Positions 4,984-61,528 of a stretch of 64,000 nucleotides of DNA are shown piece after piece. Position 1 is the first letter of the stretch; every line of letters starts with the position of its first letter. The stretch lies in IMG/VR virus record IMGVR_UViG_3300029969_000011. The stretch is one strand, 5' to 3'. The stretch comes from a virus (Duplodnaviria > Heunggongvirae > Uroviricota > Caudoviricetes). The notes under the pieces were generated by a model. That model was not told where the DNA came from. It made no database searches and was given only the letters and a program-made list of their open reading frames with translations. The position numbers and the translations under genes are program-made.

Positions 4984-7374
4984 ATGAAGATAATTTCTAA
5001 AGAAATTCGAGAAGCTGTACCTGAAGCTTATCTTCCTTTCAGTGCTTATGTTATTCAGACAAGAGCATTACCTGATGCTCGTGACTGTTTAAAGACTGGC
5101 GGTAGATATATTCTTTGGTCACAGTATCTCCAAAAGAACACTTATGATAAAAATAGAAAGAAAGGTCCTGACGTTGTTGGTCCTGTATCACACTGGAATC
5201 CACACGGTGATGCAGGTATTTGGGATAATATCGTAAGATTTGCAAAGCCATTCTCTATGAGATATTGTCTTGAAGATACAAAGGGAAATGTCGGCTCTAT
5301 GAGACTCGGTAAGGACCACGCAGCTCCCCGTTATCTTGAACTTCGTAGCTCAGAAATTGCAAATGAGTTTACAAAGCTCATTAAAAAAGATGCGGTAGAA
5401 CATTGGAAGTTAAACTATTCTGGTGAAGATAAATACCCTTCCGTATTCCCAACTTTATTCCCTAACTTTGTAAATGGTAATACTGGTATTGGTGTTGGAT
5501 GTGCAAGTAGTATCCCTTGCTTCAATCTATCTGAAGCCATTAATTCTTTGAAGATATTGGTTAATAATAGAGACGCAAGCTATGATGAGATTTATATTGC
5601 ACCTGACTTCCCTACTGGAGCTACAATTATAAATGGTGAAGCTGTAAAGGAATCATTACGTACTGGCCGCGGCAGAGCAGTAAAGCTCAGAGCAGTCATT
5701 GAATATGATGAAACAAAGAATGAACTTGAAATTCAGCAAGTACCATATCAGGTTTATACTGGAAGAGTTACTAAGCAGATTGAAGAAGCAATAGCTGAAG
5801 GTAAGTTGCTTGGTATCAAGAGCTTCTATGACGGTACTGATAGGTCTTGTGGTAAGTATGGTACTAAAATTATAATTACTTTAAATAAAGGAACTAATGT
5901 TAAGCAGTTAGTTCGTCAGCTTTATAAGGAAACTTCACTTCAATCTACTTTTACTGTTTGTCAGCTTATGCTTGAAAATGGTACAAAGCCAAAACAGTAT
6001 GGTTTGAAAGAAATGATGTTGGCATACCTTGACCATGCTATGGACTGCTTAAAGCGTTCTTATATCTTTGATTATAATAAGGTTAAGAAAACTCTCAATA
6101 TCAAAGAGGGTTATCTTATAGCGATTGCTCACATTGATGAAGTTGTCCAGTTAATCAAATCTGCTGAATCAGAAGCTTCACTTATCAAGACTTTTGAGGA
6201 TAAATATGGTCTTAATGAAGAACAATCTAAGGCTATTATTGACCTTAAGTTAAGAAGCTTAATGAAATTAGAGCATATTAAGATTGAAAAGGAACTTGAA
6301 AAATTAAGAATTGAAGCTGAAGGACTCGATACTCTTATTAATGATGAGGCCGCTTTTAAGGCAGCATTTATCGCAGAGCTCGACAGAATTGATAAGAAGT
6401 GGGGAGACTCTCGTAGAACTACTGTACTTAATCTCAATTGTGATGATGAAAAGGAAGATGCAGAGCCTATCGAGAAGAAGGAACTTCTTATATACTACAC
6501 TAATCTTGGCAACATTTATACCGTAGAAAGCTCTACTCTTATGAAAACGCGCCGCGGTGGCAAGGGTTCTAAGATTAAGATGGCAGATAATGAAGCAATC
6601 GTCAAGACAATTAATGATGACAACTTTAGCTCATTAATGATATTCTCTAACCTTGGACAGGCATATGCGTTGTCTATTGACGACCTTCCTGTAAATTCAA
6701 AGGTTAATGTAGCACAGCTATTCGATTTCAAACCTGACGAAAAGCCTACAACTATTACCTCAGTAAATCGTAGAAACGGTATCGAATACTATGTCTTTGT
6801 AACTAAGAACGGTATGATTAAGAAGACTGCGGGCGAGGAGTACAACTTTAAGAGAGGTAAGGCTCTTAAGGCAATCAATCTTAAAGACGGCGATGAAGTT
6901 GTAAATGTTCTCTTTATGAAGAACGAACAAGTCGGAATCTTGACAAATAACGGAAATTTTGTTAAAATAAATACAGAAGATATAAATGCAATAGGAAGAG
7001 CAACAGCAGGTGTCAAGGCTATTAAGCTTAATGACGATGACTATGTAATTGACGCAAAAATAATCGACGAAAAGGATAAGTATATGATTACACTTTCTGA
7101 ACGTGGCTTGATTAAGAAAGCTTCTATGAGCGAGTTCCCAGTTTGTGGCCGCCCCATCAAGGGTAAGAAGATTTCTGACACAAGAGACGGAGACAAAATA
7201 GTCAAATTCTTGACTTTAAATGAAGAAAGTGATATAATAATTATAGTAAAACGAAAGAACATAAAAATATCAACTTCTGAGTTAAGAGAGCTCACTCGCA
7301 ATGCTACTGGCGTAAAAGCTATAAACATTGATGAAGGCGACATAGCTTCAGATTTAGTGAGGGGATAGGAATGA
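4984..7374 (+). CDS. gyrA: Type IIA topoisomerase/gyrase subunit A with beta-pinwheel CTD; under code 15 it ends at TGA 7372-7374
   Basis: RALPDARDCLK, HPHG-like NPHGD, catalytic AAPRY, VNGNTGIGVG, GyrA-box-like RRGGKG, repeated (R/K)xxxG blades. The TAG at 7366 is followed by GAA TGA overlapping the next ATG. Confidence 0.92.
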
Positions 7375-7808
7375 GTATCGAAACTAAAATCGAAAAGATA
7401 AAGGCGGAGAAGGAGAGTGCCATTGAGGCACTCAACCTCTACCTTGATTCTATATACAATATGACTGACAGATTCTTCGATAACCAGATATAGGAAGTAG
7501 ATGGTGAGAAAAAGGTGGTCCGTGTTCTTAAAGAAGGACTGGAACCTGATGAGAAGATTGAAGGATTTGTAAAGGAATTAAACTCTGATGCAAGTGCGTA
7601 TGAAAATGTTAGAGGAAAGTTATTGTCTGACGACTTTAATTTGTCCCTCACTGAAATCGCAAGAATAGGACTTGCTTTTACTTTCGCAGGAATAGTAATC
7701 CAAAAGAGAGTGGAAGAAAGTCAGAGAGCGCTTGCCCAAATCAAGACGACAATTGACGTTTTGATGGAAGGAGAAACTCAAAATGTTGACTTTTCCAAAG
7801 AAGTTTGA
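7371..7808 (+). CDS. Hypothetical helical protein (145 aa, TAG at codon 41)
   Basis: ATG at 7371 is in frame with track ORF 7515-7808 through TAG 7491. Confidence 0.7.
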
Positions 7809-7814
7809 TATAAT
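7786..7814 (+). promoter_or_regulatory. sigmaA-type promoter
   Basis: TTGACT-N17-TATAAT with extended TG. Confidence 0.8.
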
Positions 7815-7873
7815 ATATATAGAAAATCAAACAAAGGCATAAGACCTTTGAGGAAAAGGAATAAGTTGAAAAT

Positions 7874-7902
7874 TTGACTTTTAATTCCGATTGTGTTATA
7901 AT
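7874..7902 (+). promoter_or_regulatory. sigmaA-type promoter (tandem with the 7786 promoter)
   Basis: TTGACT-N17-TATAAT with extended TG. Confidence 0.8.
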
Positions 7903-7995
7903 TATTAAGGTAAATAAATAGCAATATGTGGAAAACCCACCTGCTATTTTATTTAATACATTTTAAATTTTAAATTTTTAAAGGAGTGATTTACA

Positions 7996-8265
7996 ATGGC
8001 AACAAAGATGACTGAAGGTTCAAGAAAGGTATTTGAGTATCTCAAGGCAGCAGGCGCAGGTGTCGCTTTCACAACTAAGTAGGTATAGGAAGCTCTCGGA
8101 TTCGAGAAGGCTGGTTCTGTAACTGGTTCTGTTACTGGTCTTTGCAAGAAGGGCTACGCAGAGAGATTTACAGAGACTGTTGAGGATGAGAACGGCAAGA
8201 AGACTGAGGTTAAGAAGTTCGCTCTTACTGAGGCTGGCGCTAACTTCGACCCAGATGCTGAATAA
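7996..8265 (+). CDS. Small winged-helix DNA-binding protein (89 aa, TAG at codons 29 and 31)
   Basis: AAGGAGTGA RBS; MATKMTEGSRKVFEYLKAAGAGVAFTTKQVQEALGFEKAGSVTGSVTGLCKKGYAER...KKFALTEAG fits a wHTH pattern; codon usage typical of a highly expressed gene. Missed by the track. Confidence 0.75.
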
Positions 8266-8286
8266 TTGAAGTCAGACGAATTTAAA

Positions 8287-8315
8287 AGGGCGATATAACT
8301 ATCGCCCTAAATTTT
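8287..8315 (+). terminator. Intrinsic terminator
   Basis: AGGGCGATA-taac-TATCGCCCT followed by aaatttt. Confidence 0.6.
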
Positions 8316-8350
8316 ACTAAGAAAAAATATCCCAGACGGAGGAAATGTAA

Positions 8351-9256
8351 ATGTTAAATATCGAAAAAACTCAGAGTGATAATTCAGTATATATGAGCGG
8401 CGTTCTTAATGAACTTGACATAACCACAGGCCAGTCTAAGGACGGCAAAGAGTGGATTCGTGGTACAGCAGTAATTAAGTGCGATTAGGAGATTAACGGA
8501 GTTCCCGTTGAGTGCCTTGGCACAGTAAAGATGTTCTCTATGAGATTGAAGAAGGACGGAGACCTTAATAAGGTTTACGACAGAATCCTTGGCTATAAGG
8601 AGAAGTTCACCTCAGAGGCAGCTGCTGATGAAGACCATCCAGCTTCTAAGGTTACTGTAACTGGTCAGCTTGAAGAGAATATTTGGATTGACAGCACTAC
8701 AGGTAAGGAGCGCTCTACTTTCCAGATTAGTTCTAACTTCTTAAATGACAAGAGAGAAGGCGACGAAGATGGTATTAAGTTCCAGCTTTCAGGTGTCGTA
8801 CTTAATGACCCTACAAATGCTGATGAAATCGACAAGAATGATGAGCCTACAGGCAGAATCCGTATCAAGTTCGGCGTAATCGGTTACGGCGGCAAGATTA
8901 ACGTTCTTGACCTTTATGCTTCTGAAGGTGCAAAGAGCCACATTCAGGACAGCTGGAATAAGGAAGACACAGTTAAGGTAACTGGTCGTGTTAATGTAAC
9001 AAAGAAAATTGAGCAGATAGAGGAAAAGCAGGGCTTTGGTGAGTCTATCATCAAGACTCGTACTATTTCTACTAAGGAGCTTATCATAACTGGTGGTTCT
9101 GCTTCTGGTCTTGAGGAAGAGCTTTCATATGACAGCGATTCCATTAAGAAGGCATTAGGAGACCGTAGAGCTAAGATAGACGAATTAATTGAAAATAGTA
9201 AGAACTCTACATCAAAGGCAGCTCCAAAGAATAAGAGTACTGATTTCGGATTTTAA
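8351..9256 (+). CDS. Putative single-stranded DNA-binding protein (tandem OB folds), 301 aa, TAG at codon 46
   Basis: GGAGG RBS and ATG at 8351 in frame with the track ORF; beta-rich OB-like halves (VTVTGQL, VKVTGRV); acidic/aromatic tail STDFGF; lies before the AAA ATPase and helicase. Confidence 0.65.
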
Positions 9257-9269
9257 TTAATCCGAAATC
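9242..9269 (+). other. Hairpin spanning the SSB stop codon
   Basis: GATTTCGGAT-N8-ATCCGAAATC. Confidence 0.45.
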
Positions 9270-9296
9270 TAACTTTATATCAAAGGAGTGATTTAA

Positions 9297-10271
9297 ATGC
9301 CTATAGATTTACTTAATCTACAACCTCAAGTAATTTCAAAAAATTTAAGAGGTAAATACATAATGCTTTATGGCTTGCCAGGCGTTGGTAAAACAAGCCT
9401 CGCGGCACAGTTCGAGAAAGTTCTTATCGCAGGTTTTGAAATGGGTACTAATGCACTTAATAATGTATATGTTGCCCCTATAAAGACTTGGGATGACTGG
9501 AAGAAAATGGTAAAGGACTTATGTAGAAAAGATGAACTTAAGGATAAATTCCACGCTATTGCTGTTGATACAGTTGATGAAGCTTGGAACCTTTGTACAA
9601 AATACGTATGTGGACAGGCAGGTGTTGATAACCTTAGCGATGTCGGCTTCGGTAAACTTTATGCAGAAGCTTCTAAGGAGTTCGCACAGCCATTCAGAGA
9701 TTTAGCTTATAACGGCTATGGTTTAATCTTTACAAGCCACTCCGCAGAGAAGGAGTTTAAGAATGAGAAGGGTGAGAAATACACTCAGATTGTTCCAGCT
9801 CTTCAGAACCGTGCATTTGACATTATCAACAAGATGGTTGATATTATTGCATACATAAGAGAAATTTCTCTCGAAGATGGCGACAAAGTTATTCGTAAGC
9901 GTTTTATGTTTCTTCGTGATGAGGTCGGCGATAGATTCTTAGTTAAATCAAGATATCGTTATATTGCCCCTCGTATTCCACTCGACTACAACGCATTAGT
10001 TGAGGCTATATATAAGGCAATAGACGATGAGTGCGCTAATTCTGGCGGCGCAGCTACGGATGAACATAATCCATATACAACCTTAAATTTCGATGAACTA
10101 ATGGAAGAAGCAAAGATGTTATGGGGCCAGGTTGTCCAAAACAACAAGGTCGGTGAGGCTTCAGCTATATTGGAGTCTGTCTTTGGAAAACCTAAAAAGT
10201 TTTCAGAAATCTTACCTGAAGAGGTTGATGGGCTCAATCAAGTTTTGATTGAGGTACGTGCTATACTTTGA
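9297..10271 (+). CDS. AAA-family ATPase (AAA_24/Sak4-like recombination protein)
   Basis: Walker A GLPGVGKT, Walker B IAVDTVD, LIFTSH motif. Confidence 0.8.
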   Translation: MPIDLLNLQPQVISKNLRGKYIMLYGLPGVGKTSLAAQFEKVLIAGFEMGTNALNNVYVAPIKTWDDWKKMVKDLCRKDELKDKFHAIAVDTVDEAWNLCTKYVCGQAGVDNLSDVGFGKLYAEASKEFAQPFRDLAYNGYGLIFTSHSAEKEFKNEKGEKYTQIVPALQNRAFDIINKMVDIIAYIREISLEDGDKVIRKRFMFLRDEVGDRFLVKSRYRYIAPRIPLDYNALVEAIYKAIDDECANSGGAATDEHNPYTTLNFDELMEEAKMLWGQVVQNNKVGEASAILESVFGKPKKFSEILPEEVDGLNQVLIEVRAIL

Positions 10272-10277
10272 TTATTC

Positions 10278-10308
10278 GGGGAAAGATTAATTTCTTTCCC
10301 CTATTTTT
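10278..10308 (+). terminator. Intrinsic terminator
   Basis: GGGGAAAGA-ttaatt-TCTTTCCCC followed by TATTTTT. Confidence 0.7.
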
Positions 10309-10323
10309 GTAAGGAGGGGCCTA

Positions 10324-11586
10324 ATGCTTGTAATTGATACTAATATTTTATTAGACTTCCCTCAGATTATTGAGGAAGAAACGGATGAACTTGTTATTGC
10401 TACAGATGTTCTTAAGGAGCTGGACGGATTAAAGTTACATCAGAATTTTGATGTTTCCTACAAAGCTCGCCGCGCCGCCGTTATAATTTCTCATAACTTA
10501 GATAAGTTAATATGGGATTGCACTCTTGAAAAAGAAAGATATGACAGTGTTGATGATAAGTTAATTGAAATTACGAAACGTAGAGATGCTATATTGGTTA
10601 CTAATGATGTTTACCTAAAAGTAAAAGCAATAACAAAAGGCGTAAAGACTCAGGCTTATGGTAAGACAGAAGCCTATACGGGTGTCAAAGAAGTTCTTAT
10701 AACACCAGAACATGACACGATGGTTGGTCAAATACTCGAAACTGGAGAGATACCAGATGAACTTGGAAAAGTTTATGAAAATCAGTTCGTCCTTTTTAAG
10801 GATGTAACCTCTCCATTTGTAAATAAACACGGCGAAACTGATTATGCTATCTATGATAGCTTCATCTGTAGCGGTGGATATTTACATCACTTATGTGAAG
10901 ACTACGAGTTAAGAATTAAGAATGAATGGTGCGAGAAGCCCGATAAGGGAATTGGTCCTCGTAACCCAGAGCAGAAATGCTTGTTCAATATTCTTAATGA
11001 CAGAAACATTACCATTGTTTACGCTGGTGGTAAATTCGGAACGGGTAAAAGCTTTATTATGAATAACTTTGCTTTGCAAGAAGTAGAGAGAGGAAGAATA
11101 AAGAAAATTGTCTATGTTCCTAACAACTCATATACAGAGAATACTATTGACATCGGTGCTTTGCCTGGCGAGCTACTTGATAAGGTAGCTGGACAAATCG
11201 GTCCGCTTGTAGACTTGGTAGGTATCGACAAAGTACAAGATATGATTACTCATAATCAGCTTGAGGTTGTCAATATGGGTTCTATCCGTGGTCGTAGTTT
11301 CAGCGACTCAATCATTATAGTGAATGAGGCTCAAAACTTAACAGAAGACCATATTAAATTACTTATAGGAAGAGTAGGTGAAGGTTCTCGTATCTTTTTC
11401 GATGGCGACTTAAAGCAAGCAGATAGCGCCGTTTTTAGAAACAGAAATGGTTTAAAGTTACTTTTAAATTTAAGAAAGTCTCCCATTTACTCTCGTATAT
11501 TTGCGACAGTCCAGTTAAAATTAACAGAGCGTAGTTTGACAGCGCAGGCTGCTTCTTACCTCGACGAATTTACGGGCGGCATTTAA
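10324..11586 (+). CDS. phoH: PIN-domain + PhoH ATPase fusion (PhoH2-like)
   Basis: N-terminal PIN VIDTNILL...VLKELDGLK...DDKLI...VTND; PhoH GKFGTGKS, RGRSF, IIVNEAQN, FDGDLKQAD. Confidence 0.88.
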   Translation: MLVIDTNILLDFPQIIEEETDELVIATDVLKELDGLKLHQNFDVSYKARRAAVIISHNLDKLIWDCTLEKERYDSVDDKLIEITKRRDAILVTNDVYLKVKAITKGVKTQAYGKTEAYTGVKEVLITPEHDTMVGQILETGEIPDELGKVYENQFVLFKDVTSPFVNKHGETDYAIYDSFICSGGYLHHLCEDYELRIKNEWCEKPDKGIGPRNPEQKCLFNILNDRNITIVYAGGKFGTGKSFIMNNFALQEVERGRIKKIVYVPNNSYTENTIDIGALPGELLDKVAGQIGPLVDLVGIDKVQDMITHNQLEVVNMGSIRGRSFSDSIIIVNEAQNLTEDHIKLLIGRVGEGSRIFFDGDLKQADSAVFRNRNGLKLLLNLRKSPIYSRIFATVQLKLTERSLTAQAASYLDEFTGGI

Positions 11587-11589
11587 GGA

Positions 11590-11617
11590 AAAGGGCGACG
11601 AAAGTCGTCCTTTTTTA
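11590..11617 (+). terminator. Intrinsic terminator
   Basis: AAAGGGCGAC-GAAA-GTCGTCCTTT followed by TTT. Confidence 0.75.
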
Positions 11618-11646
11618 TTGACTTTTTAACCAAATAATGTTATAAT
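11618..11646 (+). promoter_or_regulatory. sigmaA-type promoter for the helicase operon
   Basis: TTGACT-N17-TATAAT with extended TG. Confidence 0.85.
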
Positions 11647-11677
11647 ATTTATAGAATTAAAAGAAAAGGGTGAAGAA

Positions 11678-12388
11678 ATGGCTAAGCGTATACCTGAAGA
11701 AATTATATAGAAAATTCCTATTCTTTATAAAGAGTACGGAGTAAAGAACAAAGTAGCTGAAGAGCTTGGTATCTCCGTGTCCAGTGTCTCTAAATATTTA
11801 ACAATATTTGAAGCCGCGCCACAAGAGAAAGAACCTAAGAAGAAAACAAAGATAACTCCAGAGGTAATTGAACAAATCAATAAAAGATATTCCGAATGTA
11901 AGAATATGTCACAGGTGGCAAGAGAATTAGGAATATCAGCAACGACAGTTAAGAATTATCTTTCAGAAGAAAATCTTCAGCTAAAACAAATTGAATGTGA
12001 TGATAGAGATGCTCTCTGGTTTTACATTTTCAGATTGTTTGGTAAGCACTCTGATGAAAAGCCAGTAAGTGATTGGAATATCACACAAATGCAGAAGTTT
12101 CGTAAGCAGGGGATGCCCTATAGAGGGCAGCTTCTAACTTTGAAATGGTTCTATGAAGTAAAGAAAAACTCAAAGGAAAAGTCCAATGGAAGTATTGGAA
12201 TAATTCCGTTTGTTTATGATGATGCTCGACGTTATTATGAAAAGCAAGCAAAGAAAGCTGATGAAATTGGACAGGCAATTCAGAAGCAACTTGAACAAGA
12301 CAGAATTGAAATCAAGTACAATCCGAGTGACTATATCGGCAAAAAGACCCGTCGTAAGTTAATTGACTTGAACGAGATAGGAGAGTGA
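11678..12388 (+). CDS. Tandem-HTH replication protein (putative helicase loader/initiator), 236 aa, TAG at codon 11
   Basis: Two HTH repeats (PEEIIQKI...VAEELGISVSSVSKYL / PEVIEQIN...VARELGISATTVKNYL), with the TAG aligning to Q of repeat 2; C-terminal GIIPFVYDDARRYY; directly precedes the helicase. Confidence 0.65.
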
Positions 12389-12392
12389 TATA

Positions 12393-14087
12393 GTGATTTA
12401 GGTTGACAGAAGAACAATTATTCAAATTCTCGGCAGTTTGATGTGCCGCCCTGAGCTTTTAAGTGATGTCGATAAATATCAGCTTGAGCCGACAGATTTT
12501 AGTCAGCAACTTGATAAGATGATATTTTCAGCAATCTATAATTTGTTTGCGGGCGGCGCAGAAAGAATACATACGATAGACGTTGATACTTATTTACAGA
12601 CTAATGAGGTTGCGAAGAATCTTCTCGAAAAGAATAATGGCTTAGCTTTTATTCAAGACTGTGAAGATTTAGCAGACCCCGCAAACTTTCAGCTTTATTA
12701 CAATAAACTCAAAAAGATAAATCTTCTTAGAGATTTATAGAAGAACGGCAGAGATATTTCTCCATTCTATTGTGAAGACCCATTGAATGAGAAATATGCG
12801 GAAATCAATGAGCGTTTTGAGAAGATGACCGCTACTGACATATTTAATAGTCTTCGAGGGGAACTCGCAGATTTGGAAAATAAATATGTCATTAATAGCG
12901 TTGTTGAAGAAAGTAATGCCGCCACAGGTATTAGAGAATTGATTAAGAACTTGAAGGAGACTCCTGAAATTGGCGTCCATCTTCAGGGAGAGATATTCAA
13001 TACTGTGTGTCGCGGTGGCAGAAAAGGAAAGTTATATCTTCGTTCAGCAGGTTCTGGTGTTGGTAAAACTCGTTCTATGGTTGGTGATGCTTGTCAAATA
13101 GCTTATCCAGTCAGATATGATACTAAGTATCAGAAATGGGTTTATACTGGCGAGCCAGAGAAGGTTTTGTATGTAATGACAGAGCAAGACCCTGCAGAAA
13201 TTCAGACAATGATTCTTGCGTATCTTACGGGATATAATGAAGATATGTTCTTGTATGGTACTTATAAAGAAGAGCATATGGATAGAATTATGAAGGCAAT
13301 AGATATTATGGAACGTTATAAGGATTATATGCTATTTGCTCGTATTCCAGACCCTTGTGCTTCAGTTATCAAGAATCTGTTTAGAAGATATAGTTTACAG
13401 TATAACGTAGAGAACTTCTTTTACGATTATATCTTCTCTTCTCCTGCTATGCTCAATGAGTATAGAGATTTAAAGTTAAGAGAAGACGTATGTTTAAGAC
13501 TCTTAACAACAGCAATTAAGAATTTAGCTGTTGAGCTGGACGCTTTCATAATGTCAGCTACGCAGTTAAGTGGAGACGATGACCCAAAGGGAGGATTTAA
13601 AGACTTTAGAAATATTCGAGGTTCTAAAGCGATTGCCGACCTTGCTGACTTTGCCGCGATACGTAGACGACCAAGTCCAGAAGAACTCCAGCTTGTTGCT
13701 GATTTTGAAAAGCGTTATAACTTTAAACCTAATGCTATTACAGACGTATTTAAGAATCGTCGTGGACGTTGGACGATGATAAGTATTTGGTCAGCTGTAG
13801 ATTTGGGAACGTTAAGAACAGTTGATTTGTTTGTAACAACTCCAGACTATAAACCTATCCAAGATTTCCAAATCGTTAATTTTGTATCTGTTGATATGAA
13901 TAAGAGAAGGGAAATGGAAGAGTTTTATAATGATGGCGTATTAACAGATGAAATGGCAGATGAGCTATTAGCTAATCTTGAAGCACAAATGCCAAAGACA
14001 GTAACAGACTCAATCACCGAAGCATTTGGTGACGTAAAGGAAACTAAAGAAAGGTTGAAGAATTTGGACTTCGATGATTTATTATGA
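12393..14087 (+). CDS. dnaB: Replicative DnaB-like helicase, 564 aa, TAG at codons 3 and 116
   Basis: GTG at 12393 joins track ORFs 12438-12740 and 12783-14087 in one frame; Walker A SAGSGVGKT, FFYDYI, ATQLS, RGSKAIAD. Confidence 0.88.
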
Positions 14088-15154: not shown

Positions 15155-15165
15155 GGAGGATTTGA

Positions 15166-16965
15166 ATGAAGTATATAAGAAAGACAAGTAAAGATATAAC
15201 TCATGACTTCTTATCTGAATTACTTGCAGATAGAAATATGAATTTTGGTGAGAACCCCACCTTATTCTTCCATCCAAGCTGGGAAAATGAACTTCCCTCA
15301 ACAGATTTGGATAATATATAGGAAGGTTATGAGTTACTTAAGAAGCACATACATAATGGTAGCAAGATGTTCATATGCGTTGACTCAGACGTTGATGGAT
15401 TTACAAGTGCCGCCTTAGTATATTGTTTCTTGATGAATACTTACGGAGTTAAGTATTAGATTTCAATTGACTATCACGTTCCTGAAGGAAAGGAGCACGG
15501 ACTTCGTACTCTTATGGATATGTTCACAAAGGAGAAGATTTGTGACTTAATCATACTCCCCGATAGCTCAAGTAATGACTATGAGGAACATAAGATATTG
15601 AAGGATATGGGATATGACATTCTTGTACTTGACCACCACGAAGCTGACCATTATAGTGAAAATGCAATCGTTATTAACAATCAGCTTTCAAAGAATTATG
15701 AGAATAAGTCTTTAAGTGGTGTAGGAGTTGCATATAAATTCCTTGAATATTTTGAACACGCTTTTGAAAGTGATTTAATTTCTACTATGGGTGAAGAAGG
15801 AATATATGAAGCAGAAGGCTGGGAACCTCATATTCAGGATTATATTGACCTTGTAGCACTTGGAGAAATAAGTGATATGATGAATATGAATACTCTTGAA
15901 AATCGTTGGTTCTGTGAAGAAGGACTTTCTCATATAAACAATGGTTTCTTTAAGGAACTTGTTACAAAGCAGTCATACTCATTGGGTGACGGTCCACTTA
16001 CACAAATTGGAATTGCTTTCTATATAACACCACTTATAAACGCTTTAATCAGAGTTGGCTCTGACTTAGAGAAGGAAAGATTATTTGAAGCATTTCTTAT
16101 GCCAGAGAAGATAGTTCCTTCTACAAAGCGTGGAGAAAAGGGACAGACTGAAACTCTTGCAACACAGAGTGCAAGAAATTGTGTAAATGCTAAGTCCCGT
16201 CAGAAGCGTGAAATGGATAAGGCAACTCAGTTACTTGATGTGCAGATTATTAACAATGACCTTGATAATAATAAAATCCTTATTCTCAATGCAGATGACT
16301 TAAATGTTTCAACAACATTAACTGGTCTTTGTGCTATGAACGTTGCAGCTGCACATAAGAAGCCCGTTATGTTGGGAAGAATAAGTCCTGATGGATATTT
16401 AAAAGGTTCAATTAGAGGCCGCGGCGAGTCAGAGTTAAAGGACTTCAGAGCTTTCCTTCTTGAAAGTGGTCTTATGGATTACGTAGAAGGACACGGTAAT
16501 GCCGCAGGCTTCAGCATTAAGCAGTCAAATGTTGATAAACTTACTGCATATGCAAATGAGAAGTTGAAGGACATTAACTTTAATGAAGGATACTATGAAG
16601 CTGATTTCGTAGTTCAAGGCAACTGTTCATATCTTGCTGATATGATTATAGACCTTGAAAGAGGACGTTCTCTTTGGGGTCAGCAGAATGATGAGCCTAT
16701 TATCATTGTAAAGGATATTACACTTGATGTAAAGGACATTCAGGCAATCGGCTCTTATAAGGATACATTAAAGTTTTCTTTCAATGGAATAACATATGTT
16801 AAGTTTAAGGCTAAGGCTTTACTTGATGAATTATTCTTGAAGAGCGGCAAGATAAATATCACAATTGCAGGCCGCGGCAACATAAATAATTGGGGCGGTA
16901 AGTCAACCCCACAGATTTTACTTGATGAAATGGAAATCAAGGAGTGTAGTGAGGAGGACTTTTAA
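15166..16965 (+). CDS. recJ: RecJ-like DHH single-stranded DNA exonuclease, 599 aa, TAG at codons 52 and 98
   Basis: Motif I VDSDVDG appears only on read-through; LDHH, LVALGEISD, GSIRG, EGHGNAAG. Confidence 0.88.
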
Positions 16966-17354
16966 TGGTACTTCTTGTAGCAGGAAGTCGTGATTATTAT
17001 GATTACGATGAGTTTAAACAGGTTATGGATTATACCCATAATAAGTATCATATAGATAAAATTGTGAGTGGCGGCGCAAGAGGCGCCGACTCACTTGCAG
17101 AAAGATATGCTAATGAAAATAATATTCCAATTAAAGTATTTCCAGCCAGATGGAGTGTTTATGGTAAATCAGCAGGTTTTATTCGTAATGAAGATATGCA
17201 CAATTATTTAAGTCTATATGGAAATAGAATGTGCTTGTGTTTTTGGGACGGAAAGAGCCGCGGCACAGCACATAATTTTAAACTTTGTAAGAAAAATAAC
17301 ACCAGATTGGTTTGTTATAATTTTAAATTACATAAAGTAATGGAGGGTTTATAA
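16965..17354 (+). CDS. SLOG-family protein (DUF2493/YspA-like)
   Basis: VAGSRDY, IVSGGARGADSLAERYA, YGKSAGFIRN motifs. Confidence 0.8.
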   Translation: MVLLVAGSRDYYDYDEFKQVMDYTHNKYHIDKIVSGGARGADSLAERYANENNIPIKVFPARWSVYGKSAGFIRNEDMHNYLSLYGNRMCLCFWDGKSRGTAHNFKLCKKNNTRLVCYNFKLHKVMEGL

Positions 17355-17569
17355 TGGGAGAATTTGTAGTAGGCGAGCTTTGCAAAAAGACAGAAGAGTG
17401 GAGAGTTAACGACGAGATTGAGGCTAAGGCATTAATTGAAGATGCTAAGAAAAATGAAGCCGTTGAAGGCTATGAGCTCAAGTCTTATAAAATGGTAAAG
17501 AAGGATAAGAAATCTAAGGGCGAGATTATTGATGAATGGGTAATCGTTACACTTGTAAAACAGTGGTGA
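17354..17569 (+). CDS. Hypothetical protein (71 aa)
   Basis: Translationally coupled ORF with GGAGG RBS. Confidence 0.6.
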   Translation: MGEFVVGELCKKTEEWRVNDEIEAKALIEDAKKNEAVEGYELKSYKMVKKDKKSKGEIIDEWVIVTLVKQW

Positions 17570-17576
17570 TAATCTA

Positions 17577-18083
17577 ATGAAACACGTCATGGAGCCTGAA
17601 TTTGAAGACCTCAAAAATCCAATGATTGCATATATAGCTATTCAAGCAACAATGCATGAAACTTGGGGCGGTGAAGATTATTTCGACCAAGTAGGTCATT
17701 ATTTTTCAAATGAAATTCTAAATGAATTTGCCGACTATCTTATTGAACAGAATGTCCTCAGTCAAGAAGATAAGAAAGCAATGATGAATGAGAGATACAA
17801 AGAGCTTTTAGATATTCCAAATTTTTTGGAGGATAAATATACTGAAGTCGATACCGATGAAACTTGGGAAGCGAATAGAGATTTTCGTACAAACATTTGG
17901 GATAAAGTATATTATTACTTTGCTAACTATATTTCACAAAAGGATAGAGATACTCTTTTAACTTTCCAACAGACTATTCATGAAGATGCTCCATGTCAAT
18001 GGGATACAAAAGATTGGCTGTTTTGGACAGAAGAATATTATAGATTGAAAAATACTTCATATATAGGAGAGAAAATCGAATGA
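17577..18083 (+). CDS. Hypothetical protein (168 aa)
   Basis: ORF in the operon; no motif recognised. Confidence 0.6.
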   Translation: MKHVMEPEFEDLKNPMIAYIAIQATMHETWGGEDYFDQVGHYFSNEILNEFADYLIEQNVLSQEDKKAMMNERYKELLDIPNFLEDKYTEVDTDETWEANRDFRTNIWDKVYYYFANYISQKDRDTLLTFQQTIHEDAPCQWDTKDWLFWTEEYYRLKNTSYIGEKIE

Positions 18084-18397
18084 AAGTGATTATAAGACCA
18101 AGGGGATATGGAAAGACTACCCTGCTTGTGTAGACAGCAGCGAAGAATAATTTTCCGATACTTTGTGCACGTGAGTGTAATAAAAGAATCTACGAAATAA
18201 GAGCAAAATAGCTGGGGCTCCCAGTACCTCAAATCTTTACTGTAAGTGATATGTTAAAAGGAAAAACAAGAGGTACGTGCTATAAAGATATGTTAGTCGA
18301 TGAAGCTGATGATGTATTAGCTTAGTTTATGAGGGAAACAAGTTATTGTACACCTTTAATAGCAACAATGACAATCGAGGAGGAGAAGTTAAAATGA
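18080..18397 (+). CDS. Small P-loop NTPase (105 aa, 3 TAG)
   Basis: Walker A RPRGYGKTT and Walker B LVDEAD; ATGA overlaps at both ends. Missed by the track. Confidence 0.75.
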
Positions 18398-18516
18398 AAA
18401 TTCACAGAGACGAAAAGGACAATTACAAGAAGAAGATTGACCGTTTCAAGGACGAGATGTCTCGCCGCAACAAGGAAATACAGAAAGAACGAGAACGTAA
18501 GAAAAACAGTAAGTAA
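18394..18516 (+). CDS. Small basic protein (40 aa)
   Basis: GGAGGAG RBS; MKIHRDEKDNYKKKIDRFKDEMSRRNKEIQKERERKKNSK. Confidence 0.5.
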   Translation: MKIHRDEKDNYKKKIDRFKDEMSRRNKEIQKERERKKNSK

Positions 18517-18523
18517 GCAAAAG

Positions 18524-18566
18524 GTCAAGACTATGTCTTGACTTTTTCTGTATTTTATGTTATAAT
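18524..18566 (+). promoter_or_regulatory. Terminator hairpin overlapping a sigmaA promoter
   Basis: GTCAAGAC-tat-GTCTTGAC-TTTTT; TTGACT(18538)-N17-TATAAT(18561) with extended TG. Confidence 0.85.
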
Positions 18567-18601
18567 ATATATGTAAGAAAAATAAGATAGGAGAATTATA
18601 T

Positions 18602-18793
18602 ATGGTGAAAATTCTTGAAGAAGGATTGTATGGAAAAGTCCTCTTTAAATGCTCAGAATGTGATTGTGTATTTGAAGTCGATGAAGAAGAATGTGACCAA
18701 GACTGGTCTAACCATAGTATTCCTTGGACACACAAATGTCCTAAATGTAAAAATCTCTGCAAATCTAATAAGGGTTGTAGAAAAAATAAATAA
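18602..18793 (+). CDS. Small Zn-ribbon protein
   Basis: CSEC and CPKC pairs; AGGAG RBS. Confidence 0.65.
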   Translation: MVKILEEGLYGKVLFKCSECDCVFEVDEEECDQDWSNHSIPWTHKCPKCKNLCKSNKGCRKNK

Positions 18794-18810
18794 AGGAGGG
18801 TTTCTACTGA

Positions 18811-21800
18811 ATGAGCTTAAATGATATACCTCGTTTTGATACCCACTCTCATAGTGAGTATAGTAATATTCGTTTAATTGACTCAATCAATAAGATACCA
18901 GATATGATTAAGACAGCACATCGTCTTGGAATGAAGGGTATTGCATTGACTGACCACGAATGTGTCAGCGGTCATTTAAAGTGGTTACAGACAGAAAAGA
19001 AGTTAAAAGAAAAGGGAGAGATACCCGAAGATTTCAAGTGTGCGTGCGGTAATGAGATTTATCTCGTTGATGACAGAGCAAACATTGAAAGATACTGGCA
19101 CTATATCTTAATTGCGAAAAATGCAGATGGACATAAGGCAATCAGAGAATTAAGTTCTACCGCTTGGTATCACAGTTTTACCTCTCGCGGCATGACAAGA
19201 GTTCCGACAGAAAAGAAAGAACTTGAAGCAATAGTTAAGAAGTATCCTCATTCTCTTATTGCAACAACTGCTTGTATTGGTGGACAGCTTGGAGGAAGAG
19301 TTCTTCAATTAGTAAAAGCTGAAGACCACGGCGATATGGAAGAAATTATCCGTTGTAAGCAGGATATAGATGCCTTCATTAGATGGAATCTTGAACTATT
19401 CGGTGATGATTTCTACATTGAGGTTGCTGCCGGTCAATCAAAAGACCAGATTAGATTTAATAAGAGAATTGCCTCAATAGCTAATAATTATTTGGTAAGA
19501 ATGGTAATCGGTTCAGACGCACACTATCTTACTGCGGCAGAACGTCCTCTTCACAAGGCTTATCTTAATTCAAAGGAAGGCGACCGTGAGGTTGATGAGT
19601 TCTACTTTGATGCTCATATGATGGATAATGAAGAAGCCTTTGGAAATCTTCAAGTTGCTTTCTCAGAGGAAGACTTTGGTCAAATGTGCGTAAACTCAAT
19701 GGAGATTTACGATAAGATTGAGCCATTCAGTCTTGAACATACATCAATTATTCCAGAGGTTGAGGTAAGAGATTATCCACAAATCTTCTCTCCTTATGGA
19801 GATAAATATCCAGTAATAAATGGATTATTTATGAGTAATGACATTCAAGAAAGATATTGGATAAATGAGTGTATACAGGCGCTTATTAATAAGCGTTTAA
19901 TCACAGAGCCGGAATATCTTGAAAGACTTGAAATAGAAGCTGATGTTATTAAGACAATCGGTGAAAAGCTTAATGATTGTTTGTTTAAATACTTTAATAC
20001 CTTCCAGCATTTCATTAACTTGTTCTGGGATTGCGGTTCAATCGTAGGTCCTGGACGTGGTTCAGCAGTATGTTTCCTTTCAAACTACTTACTCGGTATC
20101 ACTCAGCTTGACCCATTAAAGTGGGGACTTAAGTATTGGCGTTTCCTTAATAAAGAACGTGTTGAGTTACCTGATATTGATATTGACCTTTCTCCTTCAA
20201 AGCGTAAGAAAATCTTTGAAGCAATCCGTAAAGAACGTGGTGAGTTAAACGTTATTCAAGTTTGTACTTTCGGTACAGAAGGAACCCGTTCAGCGATTGC
20301 CGCGGCAGGACGTGGTTATCGTTCAGAAGCATATCCTAATGGACTTGAAGTTGAAACTACTCAATATCTTAGTGGTCTTATTCCACAAGAACGTGGCTTC
20401 TTATGGTCAATTCACGATGTCGTTTATGGTAATCCTGAGAAGGGTAGAGCTCCTATTGGAGCATTTATCGCTGAAGTAGAGAAGTACCCTGGTCTTCTTG
20501 AGATTATTGAGTCAATTGAAGGACTTGTAAATAAAAGAGGTCAGCACGCTTCTGGTGTTATTCTTTATAACACAAATCCTTGCGATACTGGTGCGATAAT
20601 GAGAAGTCCTAACGGAGACCTTACAACTCAGTTCTCACTTCACGAAGCTGAGGCAATGGGCGACGTTAAATATGACTTCCTTGTAACTGAAATTTGTGAT
20701 AAGATAACAACTTGTATCGAACTTATGCAGAAGGACGGTATTGTTGAAAAAGACTTATCATTAAGAAATATTTATGACAAGTATCTCCACCCATCTGTAT
20801 TAAATCTTGAAGATAAGAGAATGTGGGACGCTCTTGGACAGGGAACTGTTCTTGATGTATTCCAGTTCAGTACAGGTGTTGGTCTTGCAACTGCAAAGCA
20901 GGTTAAGCCTCAGAATCCAACCGAAATGACTTCAGCAAATGCGATAATGAGACTTATGGGAGAAAGAGGAAAAGAAAGACCACTTGATAGATATTGCCGT
21001 CTTAAGGAGGATATTGGTCAGTGGTATAAAGAAGCAAGAGATAGAGGACTTAGCGAAGACGAAATAAAAATCCTTGAACCATACTACTTGCCTCGTTTTG
21101 GCGTTCCTGCACTTCAAGAAGACCTAATGGAGATTTGTATGGACGACAAGATTGCACACTTCTCATTAAAAGAAGCTAACGCGGCACGTAAAACTGTTGC
21201 GAAAAAGCATATGGAAGAAATTCCTGCACTCCACGATAAGTTCGTTGATGCTTGTCCGAATAAGAATTTCGGTGATTACGTTTGGGAAACTACAATGGGT
21301 CCTCAGATGGGTTACTCATTCTCACTTCCTCACTCACTTGCATATTCATTCGTTGGTATTCAAACATTATACTTAGCAACAAATTATCCCGCTATCTATT
21401 GGAACTGTGCTTGCTTAATTGTTAATGCCGGCGGTGCAGATTTGTTAGATACAGACGACGTTGATACAGATGCTGAAGAGACAGACACAACAGTCAAGAA
21501 GAATAAGAGCGTAAACTATGGTAAAATAAGTGCCGCCATAGGAGATTCTAAGACACGAGGAATTACTGTATTGCCGCCAGATATAAATGAGTCAGACTTA
21601 ATCTTCAAGCCTGAGTTAAAGCGTAATGCTATCATCTATGGTATGAAGGGAATTAATCGTATAGGCACAAAACTCGTTTATGAGATTTTCAATAATCGTC
21701 CTTACACAAGCATTGAAGATTTCTTATCAAAGGTTAAGGTAAATAAGCTGCAAATGTTCTCACTTATAAAGGCGGGAGCTTTCGATGAACTTTGCGGAGA

Positions 21801-22731
21801 CAGAGTCGAAGCAATGACTAACTACATTAATGGTATAGCAGACCAGAAGAAGAGAATAACTCTACAGAATATGCAGATGCTTATAGCTCAGAATATGATA
21901 CCAGCAGAATTAGACTTTGAAAAGAGATTATTCAATTTCAACAAGTATATCAAGGTTTCTAAGGACGGAACTTACTACTATCTTGATGAAATTGCGATGC
22001 CATTCTTCGAAGCAAATTATGATACAAATAAGATAGAAGAAATCGTTGTAACAAATGACGGTCCGAAGGGCAAGATTAAAATGACTACTTGGGAGTCAAT
22101 CTATAAGAAAGGTATGGACCCAGTAAGAGATTGGATGAAGAAGAATCAGCAGGACATTCTTAATGAACTTAATCGCCGCCTTGTTCAAGAGGTATGGGAT
22201 AAGTATGGTAAGGGTTCAGTAGCTGATTGGGAAATGGATAGCTTAGGCTTCTACTACCACGACCATCCACTTGCTAATTTAAAGGACGATATATATAGTA
22301 TCGCTGATTTTAACGACCTTTCTCCTGAGCCAGAAGTAGACCGTTGCTTTACTACAAAAGACGGTTCAGAGATTAAGATGTTCAAGATATATCGTATCGC
22401 AGGAACAGTAATTGATAAGGATAAGAATAAGAGTTCAGTAATGTTATTAACTCCGTCCGGTGTTGTAACTGTTAAGGTTTGGAAGAACCAGTTCGCTGCT
22501 TGGGATAAGCAAATTTCTGAGCGCGGCGCAGATGGTGTAAAACACGTAGTTGAAAAGTCTTGGTTCAGTCGTGGTAATAAACTTATTATAACAGGCATAA
22601 GACGTGATGACACATTCATTCCAAAGAAGTATAAGAATACTGAATTTGATATATTCGAGAAGATAATCAAAATGGACGAGAAAGGATTTATCTTAGAGTC
22701 ATTAACTGAAAGACCAGAGGTAGATGAATAA
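18811..22731 (+). CDS. dnaE: DNA polymerase III alpha subunit (DnaE-type, PHP domain)
   Basis: PHP HSHSEYS, LTDHE, SDAHY; palm GPGRGSA, PDIDID, GQHASGV, KYDFL; YSFSLPHSLAY; C-terminal OB fold; 1306 aa with no TAG. Confidence 0.95.
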   Translation: MSLNDIPRFDTHSHSEYSNIRLIDSINKIPDMIKTAHRLGMKGIALTDHECVSGHLKWLQTEKKLKEKGEIPEDFKCACGNEIYLVDDRANIERYWHYILIAKNADGHKAIRELSSTAWYHSFTSRGMTRVPTEKKELEAIVKKYPHSLIATTACIGGQLGGRVLQLVKAEDHGDMEEIIRCKQDIDAFIRWNLELFGDDFYIEVAAGQSKDQIRFNKRIASIANNYLVRMVIGSDAHYLTAAERPLHKAYLNSKEGDREVDEFYFDAHMMDNEEAFGNLQVAFSEEDFGQMCVNSMEIYDKIEPFSLEHTSIIPEVEVRDYPQIFSPYGDKYPVINGLFMSNDIQERYWINECIQALINKRLITEPEYLERLEIEADVIKTIGEKLNDCLFKYFNTFQHFINLFWDCGSIVGPGRGSAVCFLSNYLLGITQLDPLKWGLKYWRFLNKERVELPDIDIDLSPSKRKKIFEAIRKERGELNVIQVCTFGTEGTRSAIAAAGRGYRSEAYPNGLEVETTQYLSGLIPQERGFLWSIHDVVYGNPEKGRAPIGAFIAEVEKYPGLLEIIESIEGLVNKRGQHASGVILYNTNPCDTGAIMRSPNGDLTTQFSLHEAEAMGDVKYDFLVTEICDKITTCIELMQKDGIVEKDLSLRNIYDKYLHPSVLNLEDKRMWDALGQGTVLDVFQFSTGVGLATAKQVKPQNPTEMTSANAIMRLMGERGKERPLDRYCRLKEDIGQWYKEARDRGLSEDEIKILEPYYLPRFGVPALQEDLMEICMDDKIAHFSLKEANAARKTVAKKHMEEIPALHDKFVDACPNKNFGDYVWETTMGPQMGYSFSLPHSLAYSFVGIQTLYLATNYPAIYWNCACLIVNAGGADLLDTDDVDTDAEETDTTVKKNKSVNYGKISAAIGDSKTRGITVLPPDINESDLIFKPELKRNAIIYGMKGINRIGTKLVYEIFNNRPYTSIEDFLSKVKVNKLQMFSLIKAGAFDELCGDRVEAMTNYINGIADQKKRITLQNMQMLIAQNMIPAELDFEKRLFNFNKYIKVSKDGTYYYLDEIAMPFFEANYDTNKIEEIVVTNDGPKGKIKMTTWESIYKKGMDPVRDWMKKNQQDILNELNRRLVQEVWDKYGKGSVADWEMDSLGFYYHDHPLANLKDDIYSIADFNDLSPEPEVDRCFTTKDGSEIKMFKIYRIAGTVIDKDKNKSSVMLLTPSGVVTVKVWKNQFAAWDKQISERGADGVKHVVEKSWFSRGNKLIITGIRRDDTFIPKKYKNTEFDIFEKIIKMDEKGFILESLTERPEVDE

Positions 22732-23678
22732 TGATTATCGGTTTATATGATATAGATTTGTGGCACCGTGGACGTGCGGTGCCCAATCTTGAATTAATGC
22801 AATACTACGCCTATTATCATAAAAGAAATGATAGAGTAGTTTTGATGAAGCCAACTGATGAAGAAAGTCAGTTTGCAAAGATAATTTATTTCAAAGAAAA
22901 CCCTAATGTACTACTTCCAAAGACTTTATAGGTTTTCGGAGATAATAAAGAATTTACTGGATATGGCTTTTATAAGAAAAATGAAAAGCTTCCACCAGAG
23001 ATTGAAGTGCCGCCTTCCTATGTTCCATATGACCCTTGGGTTAATAAACTTGGAATTTCTGCGGCAGAGTTTGAAAAAATGAAACATAATAGCTATGTAA
23101 GAATTGAAACAGAAAACTTCGTAGACTTTAAGAAAGATGCAATGCACATTTATATAGCAGATAAAGACCCTCTCAATGTGAAAGGAGCTCTCGATTTTAT
23201 TGATGAACATAAGAATAAACGTTTCAACTTTTTACACACGCCAATCTTAAATGATGAAGCAACTGCTTTGAGCTTTATGCGTTATCGAGCACTTTTTAAT
23301 AAGAACTGTGTGATTAATTTCCACTGTTCTGAAGATTTCTTCTGTGATTATTATGAGTCAGTTATTTTCAAACTGGATAAATTTGATAAAGAAACTGAAG
23401 AACAATATCAAAAGAGAATTGCTAAAATGGCGATTTGGTATAAAGGTCATAATGCCGCATTGAGATTTCCTTATAACGTAAAATACTCGCCGTTTACCGA
23501 GAAGATTATTATTTGGGCAAAAGATAATAGTGCTAAGGATTCATTCGCAACATTTTACCAATCTTCTAAGATAACTCAAAAAGAACTCGCCACCCTACCA
23601 TCTGGATTGAGATTACTTCTCAAACAAAATCCTAAAACGGCAACACGTCAAAGTCTTGACTTAAAATCATCTTTATGA
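22731..23678 (+). CDS. Hypothetical protein (315 aa, TAG at codon 67) with an N-terminus like phage radical-SAM-associated proteins
   Basis: IIGLYDID...PNLELMQYYAYYHKRNDRV; joins two track ORFs through TAG 22929. Confidence 0.6.
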
Positions 23679-23684
23679 TATAAT
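23656..23684 (+). promoter_or_regulatory. sigmaA-type promoter
   Basis: TTGACT-N17-TATAAT with extended TG, preceded by GTCAA forming a palindrome. Confidence 0.8.
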
Positions 23685-23712
23685 TAATTATAAAAGTAAG
23701 GAGGAGATACTA

Positions 23713-23895
23713 ATGGAAAAGAGAGAAGAATATGCAAAAGTTTGCTTTGAACTCAGAGAACGCCAAGACGAACTTTTAAAGTTCGATGTAAGCACTTTCG
23801 TTCTTAACCCAGAGATTAACACTCTTATAGATGAAATAGCTGAGTTGGAAGTGATAAAGGCAAATCTTGAAAAAGAATTAGGAGGAGCAAAGTGA
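23713..23895 (+). CDS. Small coiled-coil protein (60 aa)
   Basis: AGGAGGAG RBS. Confidence 0.6.
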   Translation: MEKREEYAKVCFELRERQDELLKFDVSTFVLNPEINTLIDEIAELEVIKANLEKELGGAK

Positions 23896-24626
23896 TGGAA
23901 AAAATTAATGTAGATATTTTCAATGAAGATGGTTCTTTAAAGAGCAAAGAAGATTTCCTCAAGACCTTTGATAAGGCTTATGATGAAATCGCTGAGGAAA
24001 TCAAGGGTGCTGATGTTGGTCTTCCCGATACATACTTCGGAATATTAACTGACCCTGAATGTTAGATTGATGTTGAGTCTACTCTTGAAACATTTGATTT
24101 TACAGAGAGAACAATATATTTGACAGAGGAAATTAAGCCCGAACTTGCAGTTAGTATTTTTGAGATAATCCGCTTCTGGAATAAGGTTGATAAAGAAGAC
24201 GAAATTCCAATCGAGGAAAGAGAGCCAATTAAGATATACATTAATACTCCTGGCGGCGACCTTGATGGCGTACTAAGTATTATTAGTGCAATTCAAGCGT
24301 CTGTAACTCCTGTATATACTTACAATATAGGTACAGCCTATAGTGGTGGTTTCTTTATCTGTATCGCAGGTCATAAGAGATTCGCTTTAACACACACTTC
24401 ATTTATGTTCCATGAAGGTGCGGCAATGGACGGTGGAGATGCTCACAAGTTCTTCCAGCACGTTGATTTCTACAGATATCAGCTTACAAGACTTAAAGCT
24501 CACGTCCTCAATAAAACAAACATTACCAGTGATGTTTATGAGGAACATAAGAAAGACGACTGGTTTATGGACCAGGACGACGCTAAGAAATTTGGCGTTA
24601 TTGATGAAATTATAGAAAAGCTTTAA
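23895..24626 (+). CDS. clpP: ClpP-like serine protease, 243 aa, TAG at codon 57
   Basis: IKIYINTPGG, GTAYSGG (catalytic Ser), SFMFHEG (His), DWFMDQDDAKKFGVID; ATG 23895 in frame through TAG 24063. Confidence 0.85.
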
Positions 24627-24640
24627 GGAGGAAAACATAA

Positions 24641-25432
24641 ATGAAGAAAGAAGTAAATGAAAAGCTCGAAGCGTTATTCGCATATGATACCAATAATACA
24701 CTTGACCAGTTACTTTCATTGCTCGAACTTCCCGATGAGCAGTTTGATGCACTTTATCCAAGTATTCAGTAGAAGCTCGACCTTGTTTTCGCAAGTGAAG
24801 AGTTCCAGCAGGATACATTAAAGGCTCTTAAACTTACAGGTCACGGTTCTATTGAGGAAGAGAGGGCTGCGGCACTTGAAGTAATTGATGAGATTTCAGC
24901 AGATGACACACTTTCTCGTTCAAAGAGGGATTTCCTTACATCTCTTATCGAAGGTTCAGTTGTATCAATCATAAATCTTATCGAGGTCCCAAGAGAGCGC
25001 GTTAAGGTTCAGATTAAAAAGCTTAGCGAGGATGCTGTTATTCCTCAGTATGCACATAAGACTGATGCTGGCGCAGATGTTTATGCAATAGAAGATGTTA
25101 CACTTAAACCACATGAGACACAGCTTATTAAGACTGGTATCTCAGTTGCAATTCCTGTTGGATATGAGATTCAGGTTCGTCCTCGTTCAGGACTTAGTCT
25201 TAAGACAGGTTTAAGAGTTGCTAATGCCCCTGGCACTATCGACTCTGATTATCGTGGTGAAGTATGTGTAATTATGACAAATACTGCTAATCTTTCTCAG
25301 ACAATTAATAAAGGCGATAAGATTGCACAGCTTGTAATCTCAGCCGTTCCGATGATTGATTGGGTTGAAGTTGACGAGCTTGACTCAACAGAGAGAGGAG
25401 AAGGCGGCTTCGGCTCAACTGACAAGAAGTGA
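24641..25432 (+). CDS. dut: Trimeric dUTPase with an ~120-aa N-terminal extension, 263 aa, TAG at codon 44
   Basis: All five motifs: DAGADVY, RPRSGL, GTIDSDYRGE, GDKIAQL, RGEGGFGST; AAGGAGG RBS. Absent from the track. Confidence 0.92.
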
Positions 25433-58987: not shown

Positions 58988-59256
58988 TGAACATCAATCC
59001 TATCAAATAAGTTCATGCACTCAAAGAGTGTCTTTCGATAATACTCGAAAGATAAATAACGGCAGGCGGATAATTTATAATAAAGAGTGTAATAATCAAT
59101 TGTCTTATTACAATCTTCATATCCCATTAACTCAATAAGAATACTATCTAAGAACTTTTTCCATTCCCCATTTTTCTCTCTTTCGCGAAGAAGCCCATAG
59201 AGTTTCTTTTTCATCTTGTCTCTATAGGCTTCTCTTACATCATCTATATTAGCCAC
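58984..59256 (-). CDS. Hypothetical neck-region protein (90 aa)
   Basis: GTG at 59256 after AGGAG; in frame with the track ORF. Confidence 0.6.
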   Translation of the reverse strand: MANIDDVREAYRDKMKKKLYGLLREREKNGEWKKFLDSILIELMGYEDCNKTIDYYTLYYKLSACRYLSFEYYRKTLFECMNLFDRIDVQ

Positions 59257-60261: not shown

Positions 60262-60283
60262 TATTAATTCCTCCTTTAAACTC

Positions 60284-61509: not shown

Positions 61510-61528
61510 TCTTTATCCCTCCTTCTAA

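Follow-up and report, generated by a model that had tools for sequence, protein, structure and literature searches.

The window analysed here is a 64,000-nucleotide stretch (~36% GC) of a large uncultivated phage (IMG/VR record IMGVR_UViG_3300029969_000011), and our subject is where in-frame TAG codons, read as glutamine, lie within its genes. The plus-strand arm (1–26.5 kb) carries nucleotide-metabolism and replication genes, with Pfam and PHROGs matches to the NrdD C-terminus, GyrB, GyrA, AAA_24, PIN-PhoH, a helix-turn-helix (HTH) protein, a DnaB-type helicase, primase, a RecJ-like DHH protein, a DnaE-type polymerase, ClpP and dUTPase. The minus-strand arm (26.6–63.8 kb) consists of very large structural genes. 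Decoding TAG as Gln turns both arms into continuous open reading frames (ORFs), and all called genes of the window terminate in TAA or TGA, GyrA being the single ambiguous case (its end reads TAG-GAA-TGA). The 64-kb window contains no tRNA genes; a tRNA(CUA) is encoded by its complete relatives G002, G003 and G004 (155–180 kb), and in-frame TAGs within conserved genes align with Gln of relatives, as expected under code 15 (TAG to Gln). Late genes carry up to 51 TAGs each and replication genes 0–2, and TAG accounts for ~36% of late-arm Gln codons versus 6% of those in the replication module. Gln-aligned TAGs, a tRNA(CUA) in relatives, TAG-rich late genes and TAG-poor replication genes are likewise features of known code-15 phages, in which TAG occurs mainly in the late and lysis genes (Borges et al., bioRxiv 10.1101/2021.08.26.457843; PMC9523058, for proteomic validation; PMC10607447, for the phAss-1 group). 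Isolate phages gave no nucleotide match to the window; those closest to it are SPbeta-like, with a DnaE identity of 39%.

A first-pass annotation of this sequence claimed that genes with few TAGs carry them only near the start. Every TAG position and gene length that it listed was reproduced, as follows (TAG coordinates, strand, codon/gene length):

7491..7493, + strand: codon 41/145 of gene 7371-7808, which has no family match; TAG common to L077 and L081
8080..8088, + strand: codons 29 and 31/89 of a winged HTH (wHTH) gene, 7996-8265, with a weak LexA_DNA_bind match
8486..8488, + strand: codon 46/301 of gene 8351-9256, a PHROG of unknown function
11708..11710, + strand: codon 11/236 of the HTH protein gene 11678-12388
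12399..12401, + strand: codon 3/564 of the DnaB-type helicase gene 12393-14087, with the Shine-Dalgarno (SD) site GGAGAG ahead of its GTG
12738..12740, + strand: codon 116/564 of the helicase, in the linker behind the DnaB_N domain (11-104)
15319..15321, + strand: codon 52/599 of the RecJ-like DHH gene 15166-16965; Glu at this column in relatives
15457..15459, + strand: codon 98/599 of the RecJ-like gene, within the DHH domain (67-199)
22929..22931, + strand: codon 67/315 of gene 22731-23678, which has no family match
24063..24065, + strand: codon 57/243 from ATG (58/244 from GTG) of the ClpP gene 23892-24626, ahead of the Clp domain (70-243)
24770..24772, + strand: codon 44/263 of the dUTPase gene 24641-25432, in an N-terminal extension ahead of the domain (132-260)
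63649..63651, − strand: codon 57/505 of gene 62302-63819, a PHROG of unknown function; TAG common to G001

The plus-strand arm also holds a gene whose TAG lies at its far end and a long gene with none:

7366..7368, + strand: codon 795/796 (penultimate) of GyrA, 4984-7374, an exception to the pattern
18811..22731, + strand: DnaE-type polymerase, 1306 aa, no TAG in the window

The claim held for the listed genes and failed for three that had been left out, namely GyrA and two late-arm genes with few TAGs, none of them confined to the start, 52041-53936 (codons 286 and 577 of 631) and 59249-59725 (codons 43 and 113 of 158). DnaE, GyrB, primase, the AAA ATPase (AAA_24) and PhoH, given as TAG-free replication genes, do lack TAG in the window. 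Neither Pfam nor PHROGs confirmed the labels 'SSB' (gene 8351), 'protease/scaffold' (gene 62302) or 'NrdG'. At the GyrA end (7366-7374), TAG-GAA-TGA overlaps the SD site and ATG of the next gene, and the penultimate TAG is kept in L077, L078 and L082 and in relatives with as little as 58% identity. This TAG could be the former stop codon, backed up by TGA. As for the helicase, termination at codon 116 would free a lone DnaB N-terminal domain.

Within the replication module (3049-25432), TAG accounts for 12 of the 60 Gln codons at positions 1–120 of their genes and for 1 of the 150 beyond (Fisher p = 1.3e-6). When TAGs were reassigned at random among all Gln codons (TAG, CAA, CAG) of each gene, the observed positions differed from such draws for the gene set of the first-pass annotation (p = 5e-6), for all plus-arm genes up to 25432 (p = 1.8e-4) and for every gene with one or two TAGs, the exceptions GyrA, 52041 and 59249 included (p = 7e-4 to 2e-3). 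The thresholds of 35% of gene length and 120 codons, like the clustering of lineages used below, were chosen post hoc; tests on mean position do not depend on the thresholds. In late genes, TAG positions are uniform (permutation p ~0.9 for high-TAG late genes). The TAG share of Gln near replication-gene starts is 20%, below the ~43% of late genes, so positive selection for TAG is not needed to account for it. The evidence supports a positional bias that is non-random and looks shaped by translation-linked selection.

The listed TAGs are genuinely in frame and inside genes, because SD sites, Pfam domains and Gln-aligned orthologues all support the annotated starts. Strong GGAGG-type SD sites sit ahead of these starts, and Pfam domains flank, contain or follow the TAGs; in the helicase, for example, DnaB_N (11-104) and DnaB_C (202-464) lie on either side of codon 116, and in dUTPase no start codon occurs between the TAG at 44 and the domain. 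Alignments with relatives begin at the first residues and run through the TAG columns, where CAA or CAG is often present. Together these observations ruled out an artefact of ORF extension. Reinitiation behind the TAG was also considered and set aside, as a plausible SD site with GTG was found only in gene 7371 (codon 49) and in none of the others.

Composition does not change along the genes in the way that the TAGs do. The ratio of Leu codons TTR/CTR, which reports an equal C-to-T change at the first position, the choice between CAA and CAG, and the GC content at third codon positions (GC3) are all flat, with no 5′ gradient. The module is split into operons by matches to a single promoter sequence:

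7210-7238, 7786-7814, 7874-7902, 11618-11646, 18538-18566 and 23656-23684, + strand: six identical near-consensus host-type extended -10 promoters, TTGACT-17-TG-TATAAT

Replication TAGs sit anywhere from 62 to 4363 nt downstream of these matches, and this spread means that the TAGs track ORF starts, hence translation and not transcription. The promoter distances and the flat composition measures together exclude a transcription-linked or general C-to-T mutation bias. Two of the promoter matches directly follow or overlap terminator hairpins (11587-11616 and 18519-18547).

Sister strains show the same preference among their differences from the window. The metagenome contig L077 (181,757 bp) and the viral contigs L105 and L019 share 98–99% protein identity with the window and carry its TAGs, but five synonymous CAG/TAG sites set them apart from it: helicase 69, DnaE 60, dUTPase 34 and 44, and wHTH 29. 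All five are start-proximal (joint P = 0.04 for the first 35% of the gene, or 0.003 for the first 120 codons). The DnaE TAG of L077, at codon 60, occupies the single Gln codon among the first 120, out of 37 in the gene. In dUTPase, the TAG is at 34 instead of 44 in L019 and at both sites in L077, and the wHTH TAGs alternate between strains (only 31 in L077 and L078, only 29 in L082). In late genes, by contrast, the window differs from G001, its nearest viral record (93–97% nucleotide identity), at 15 TAG sites that span 0.10–0.97 of gene length. For the pooled window lineage, with the GyrA exception included, permutation gives p = 8e-6.

For a wider comparison, 84 loci around DnaE and RecJ homologues were mapped codon by codon onto the window proteins by star alignment, which could misplace a few columns. 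The loci fall into 49 lineages, about 30 of which use TAG in the module; the clustering is heuristic and removes shared ancestry only in part. Only TAG columns absent from the window lineage were counted, against a null of Gln columns in the same genes. In lineages where TAG is less than 5% of Gln, its mean relative position was 0.34 (null 0.50; p = 0.010, n = 17), and at 5–12% it was 0.43 (null 0.51; p = 0.024, n = 44); pooled below 12%, the values were 0.39 and 0.50 (p = 7.5e-4). At 12% or more, there was no shift (0.51 vs. 0.51; p = 0.42, n = 129). TAG load and shift are correlated (Spearman rho 0.47, p = 0.03), and the low-load 5′ shift persists when RecJ is omitted and at each cut-off from 4% to 16%. 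Low-load TAGs that were checked one by one stand in well-aligned contexts, often facing Gln; one artefact, from the standard-code phage L038 with its split DnaE, was excluded. Thus, across related phages the start-proximal bias recurs where TAG is rare (p ~1e-3), and positions are uniform where it is common.

Among individual genes, dUTPase and ClpP show the bias most clearly. All 8 distinct TAG columns of relatives in dUTPase lie at or before 87, upstream of the catalytic domain, and 6 of 7 in ClpP lie at 43–62, in an N-terminal extension ahead of the catalytic domain. The helicase codon-3 TAG is present too in L001, L009, L026 and L078, and column 116 is TAG in L026 and L037, one of which is only 44% identical. 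Column 46 of gene 8351 is Gln in every aligned relative (CAA/CAG or TAG) and TAG in L077, L078, L082, L103 and L081. The high-load relatives L103, L026 and L081 have 26–61 TAGs, evenly spread.

These observations bear on several explanations. The first-pass annotation saw a selected switch, in which positive selection would keep 5′ TAGs as timers that delay or throttle the helicase, the loader, RecJ, ClpP, dUTPase and others relative to TAG-free genes; ribosomes would abort at little cost for as long as the suppressor tRNA is scarce. We regard such gating as unlikely. A start-proximal site is what a cheap gate would use, and turnover with retention of at least one TAG is seen in wHTH (29 or 31) and dUTPase (34, 44 or both); dUTPase and ClpP, moreover, gain TAGs repeatedly, at many columns, only upstream of their catalytic domains. 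In addition, the base after TAG is G or A for all 13 replication TAGs of the window (p ~0.003), several of which share ATA-TAG-GAA-G, and true stops mostly have T next. This purine context was not seen in relatives (a purine at +4 in 67% vs. 64%) and so is not general. Nor do orthologues keep a 5′ TAG: L107/L006 (87% amino acid identity) have no TAG, sense or stop, in any of the 13 genes, many code-15 lineages lack TAG in each supposedly gated gene, and the columns differ between lineages. High-load relatives carry TAGs throughout the same genes, many relatives share TAGs in the middle of RecJ (columns 173, 280 and 334), and the 5′ TAG share is no higher than the late-gene level. The division into gated and ungated genes is itself unstable, as DnaE has a TAG in L077 and AAA_24, PhoH and primase are TAG-bearing in relatives. 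Non-random, translation-linked selection is thus supported, and a conserved switch is not. Nor is there support for the proposal that replisome loading is held back while polymerase and dNTP supply accumulate, given the DnaE TAG of L077 and the role in dNTP supply of dUTPase, which carries a TAG.

Chance, or drift specific to one lineage and spotted post hoc, has a low probability in our judgement. The pure pattern is limited to one species-level lineage, it was picked from very many windows, and TAGs in L103, L082 and L026 (82–88% identity) are uniform or nearly so; against this, the pooled-lineage permutation result stands even with GyrA included, independent polymorphic sites repeat the pattern, and independent low-load lineages agree in direction and show a dose response. 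We also doubt strongly that variable N-termini, where young Gln codons (TAG included) might arise more often, are the cause. RecJ 52 and 98, column 67 of gene 22731 and dUTPase 44 are indeed variable columns, and the dUTPase and ClpP TAGs lie within N-terminal extensions. However, TAG is enriched among 5′ Gln codons of relatives at columns of low, medium and high conservation alike (10.7 vs. 8.0%, 15.9 vs. 7.2% and 14.5 vs. 6.6%), window TAGs include conserved Gln columns (gene 8351 column 46; ClpP 57, which is Gln in most relatives), the polymorphisms are synonymous CAG/TAG changes, and high-load relatives of equal protein architecture are uniform. Hardly credible, finally, is an origin in ORFs extended through TAG or in C-to-T mutation concentrated near promoters or gene starts. 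Read-through of TAG can add false TAGs only at the 5′ end, and there is one such case, the TTG-started 4936 ORF, whose codon-11 TAG is upstream of the SD-backed ATG at 4984. For the other TAGs, the SD sites, domains and orthologues described above argue against extension, and the flat composition measures and TAGs up to 4.4 kb from promoters argue against mutation bias.

We favour, with a probability of roughly 0.55, a model in which, as long as suppression is incomplete, TAG is selected against more strongly the farther it lies from the start codon. The 5′ bias would then most likely reflect a TAG that is still risky early in infection, rather than a conserved on/off switch. The phage's own suppressor tRNA would read TAG as Gln, and host polymerase probably transcribes the replication operons, so that they would be translated while the suppressor is still accumulating; early translation is probable because consensus host-type promoter matches precede the operons. 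Host release factor 1 (RF1) would compete for TAG at this stage, and each TAG would cost some premature termination. The loss of full-length protein should be equal at any TAG position, but the waste in ribosome time, energy and long truncated subunits would grow with distance from the start. Truncated subunits of oligomers such as ClpP, dUTPase and DnaB could in addition poison complexes in a dominant-negative manner. Purifying selection would clear TAG from the gene body and 3′ part and tolerate it within ~100–120 codons, and the constraint would be relaxed in late genes and TAG-rich lineages, leaving TAGs evenly spread. Early translation under incomplete suppression would thus explain why replication genes and not late genes are constrained, and why the constraint fades with deeper recoding. 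As far as sequence comparison goes, the data have the marks expected of a nonsense-error positional bias, namely a 5′ shift relative to synonyms, no composition gradient, and a strength that appears to scale with exposure, with skew in low-load lineages and none in high-load lineages or late genes.

Several points weigh against selection that rises with distance from the start. Both the incompleteness of early suppression and the nature of the cost are things we infer. For the clade as a whole, the bias is of modest size when unique columns are counted (odds ratio ~1.5, p = 0.02), and TAG columns common to many lineages are no more 5′ than singletons (Spearman -0.04), a null opposite to a persistence model, which predicts that widely shared columns lie more 5′. 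Genome-wide tests of G002, G003 and G004, made with a crude SD-based gene caller, gave little or no skew (p = 0.75, 0.25 and 0.016), and the unrelated phAss-1 (OQ749652) has no genome-wide skew and only a weak trend (p 0.03–0.045) in a low-TAG minus-strand block, a subset picked post hoc. In G005, which lacks a suppressor tRNA, spurious TAGs heap at 3′ ends, as expected from read-through of real stops.

Code-15 recoding, its bias towards late genes and positional selection on nonsense errors are all known. A literature search found no account of where within phage genes reassigned stops lie; the first-pass annotation likewise knew of none. The code-15 papers treat which genes carry recoded stops and not where in the gene they lie, and a search of the Borges preprint for position, N-terminus and truncation gave nothing on the subject. 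A close parallel is the expectation, in section 21 of PMC13271495 (which cites Qin et al., 2004), that nonsense errors are selected against least strongly close to the start, so that error-prone codons should be found 5′. A TAG for which a suppressor competes with RF1 would be an extreme example of such a codon. The direction observed here agrees with the expectation: relative to its synonyms, the codon prone to termination persists close to the start and is lost farther along. In that work, however, the bias is a faint genome-wide gradient, seen in cells among ordinary sense codons; in the window it is near-absolute, concerns one reassigned stop in one temporal class of phage genes, and fades with deeper recoding.

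How recoded phages manage the period before the suppressor tRNA takes over is an open question, and the current view, in which recoded stops set the timing of late genes, is based on the identity of the genes that contain them. A load-dependent 5′ bias inside early genes is sequence-level evidence that an early-translated TAG is costly. It is also a simple statistic, computable on any recoded phage genome, and testable predictions follow from it. For gene calling, start-proximal in-frame TAGs in blocks of such phages that look standard-code should not count as evidence for a later start. More tentatively, a general rule is possible in which a reassigned stop enters early genes 5′ first and spreads as suppression becomes efficient, with the bolder version that start-proximal TAGs are kept as cheap translational timers. 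If the general rule were true, intragenic TAG position would record the progress of recoding and demonstrate that suppression is a limiting factor in early infection.

Some further features of the relatives and of the late arm were recorded. L107, L006 and L080 (87% DnaE identity) have a TAG-free replication module in which 17 ORFs end in TAA or TGA. RecJ TAG columns 173 and 334 are common to 11 and 12 lineages, and the window lineage has CAA or CAG at 173; these TAGs are either old or recurrent. Inside the TAG-rich late arm, a 984-aa virion protein (54024-56978, − strand) and a run of three genes (188, 383 and 257 aa; 59743-62302, − strand) are without any TAG, and nearly all of their Gln codons are CAG. 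These genes may encode the most abundant virion proteins; PHROGs gave no confirmation of their functions. In L005, L006, L009 and L010, the DnaE match extends over ~5 kb rather than 3.9 kb and the alignment breaks near residues 834–840, and in L038 it breaks around residues 446–452. Such breaks suggest that the gene is split or carries an inserted element, be it an intein, an intron or a homing endonuclease.

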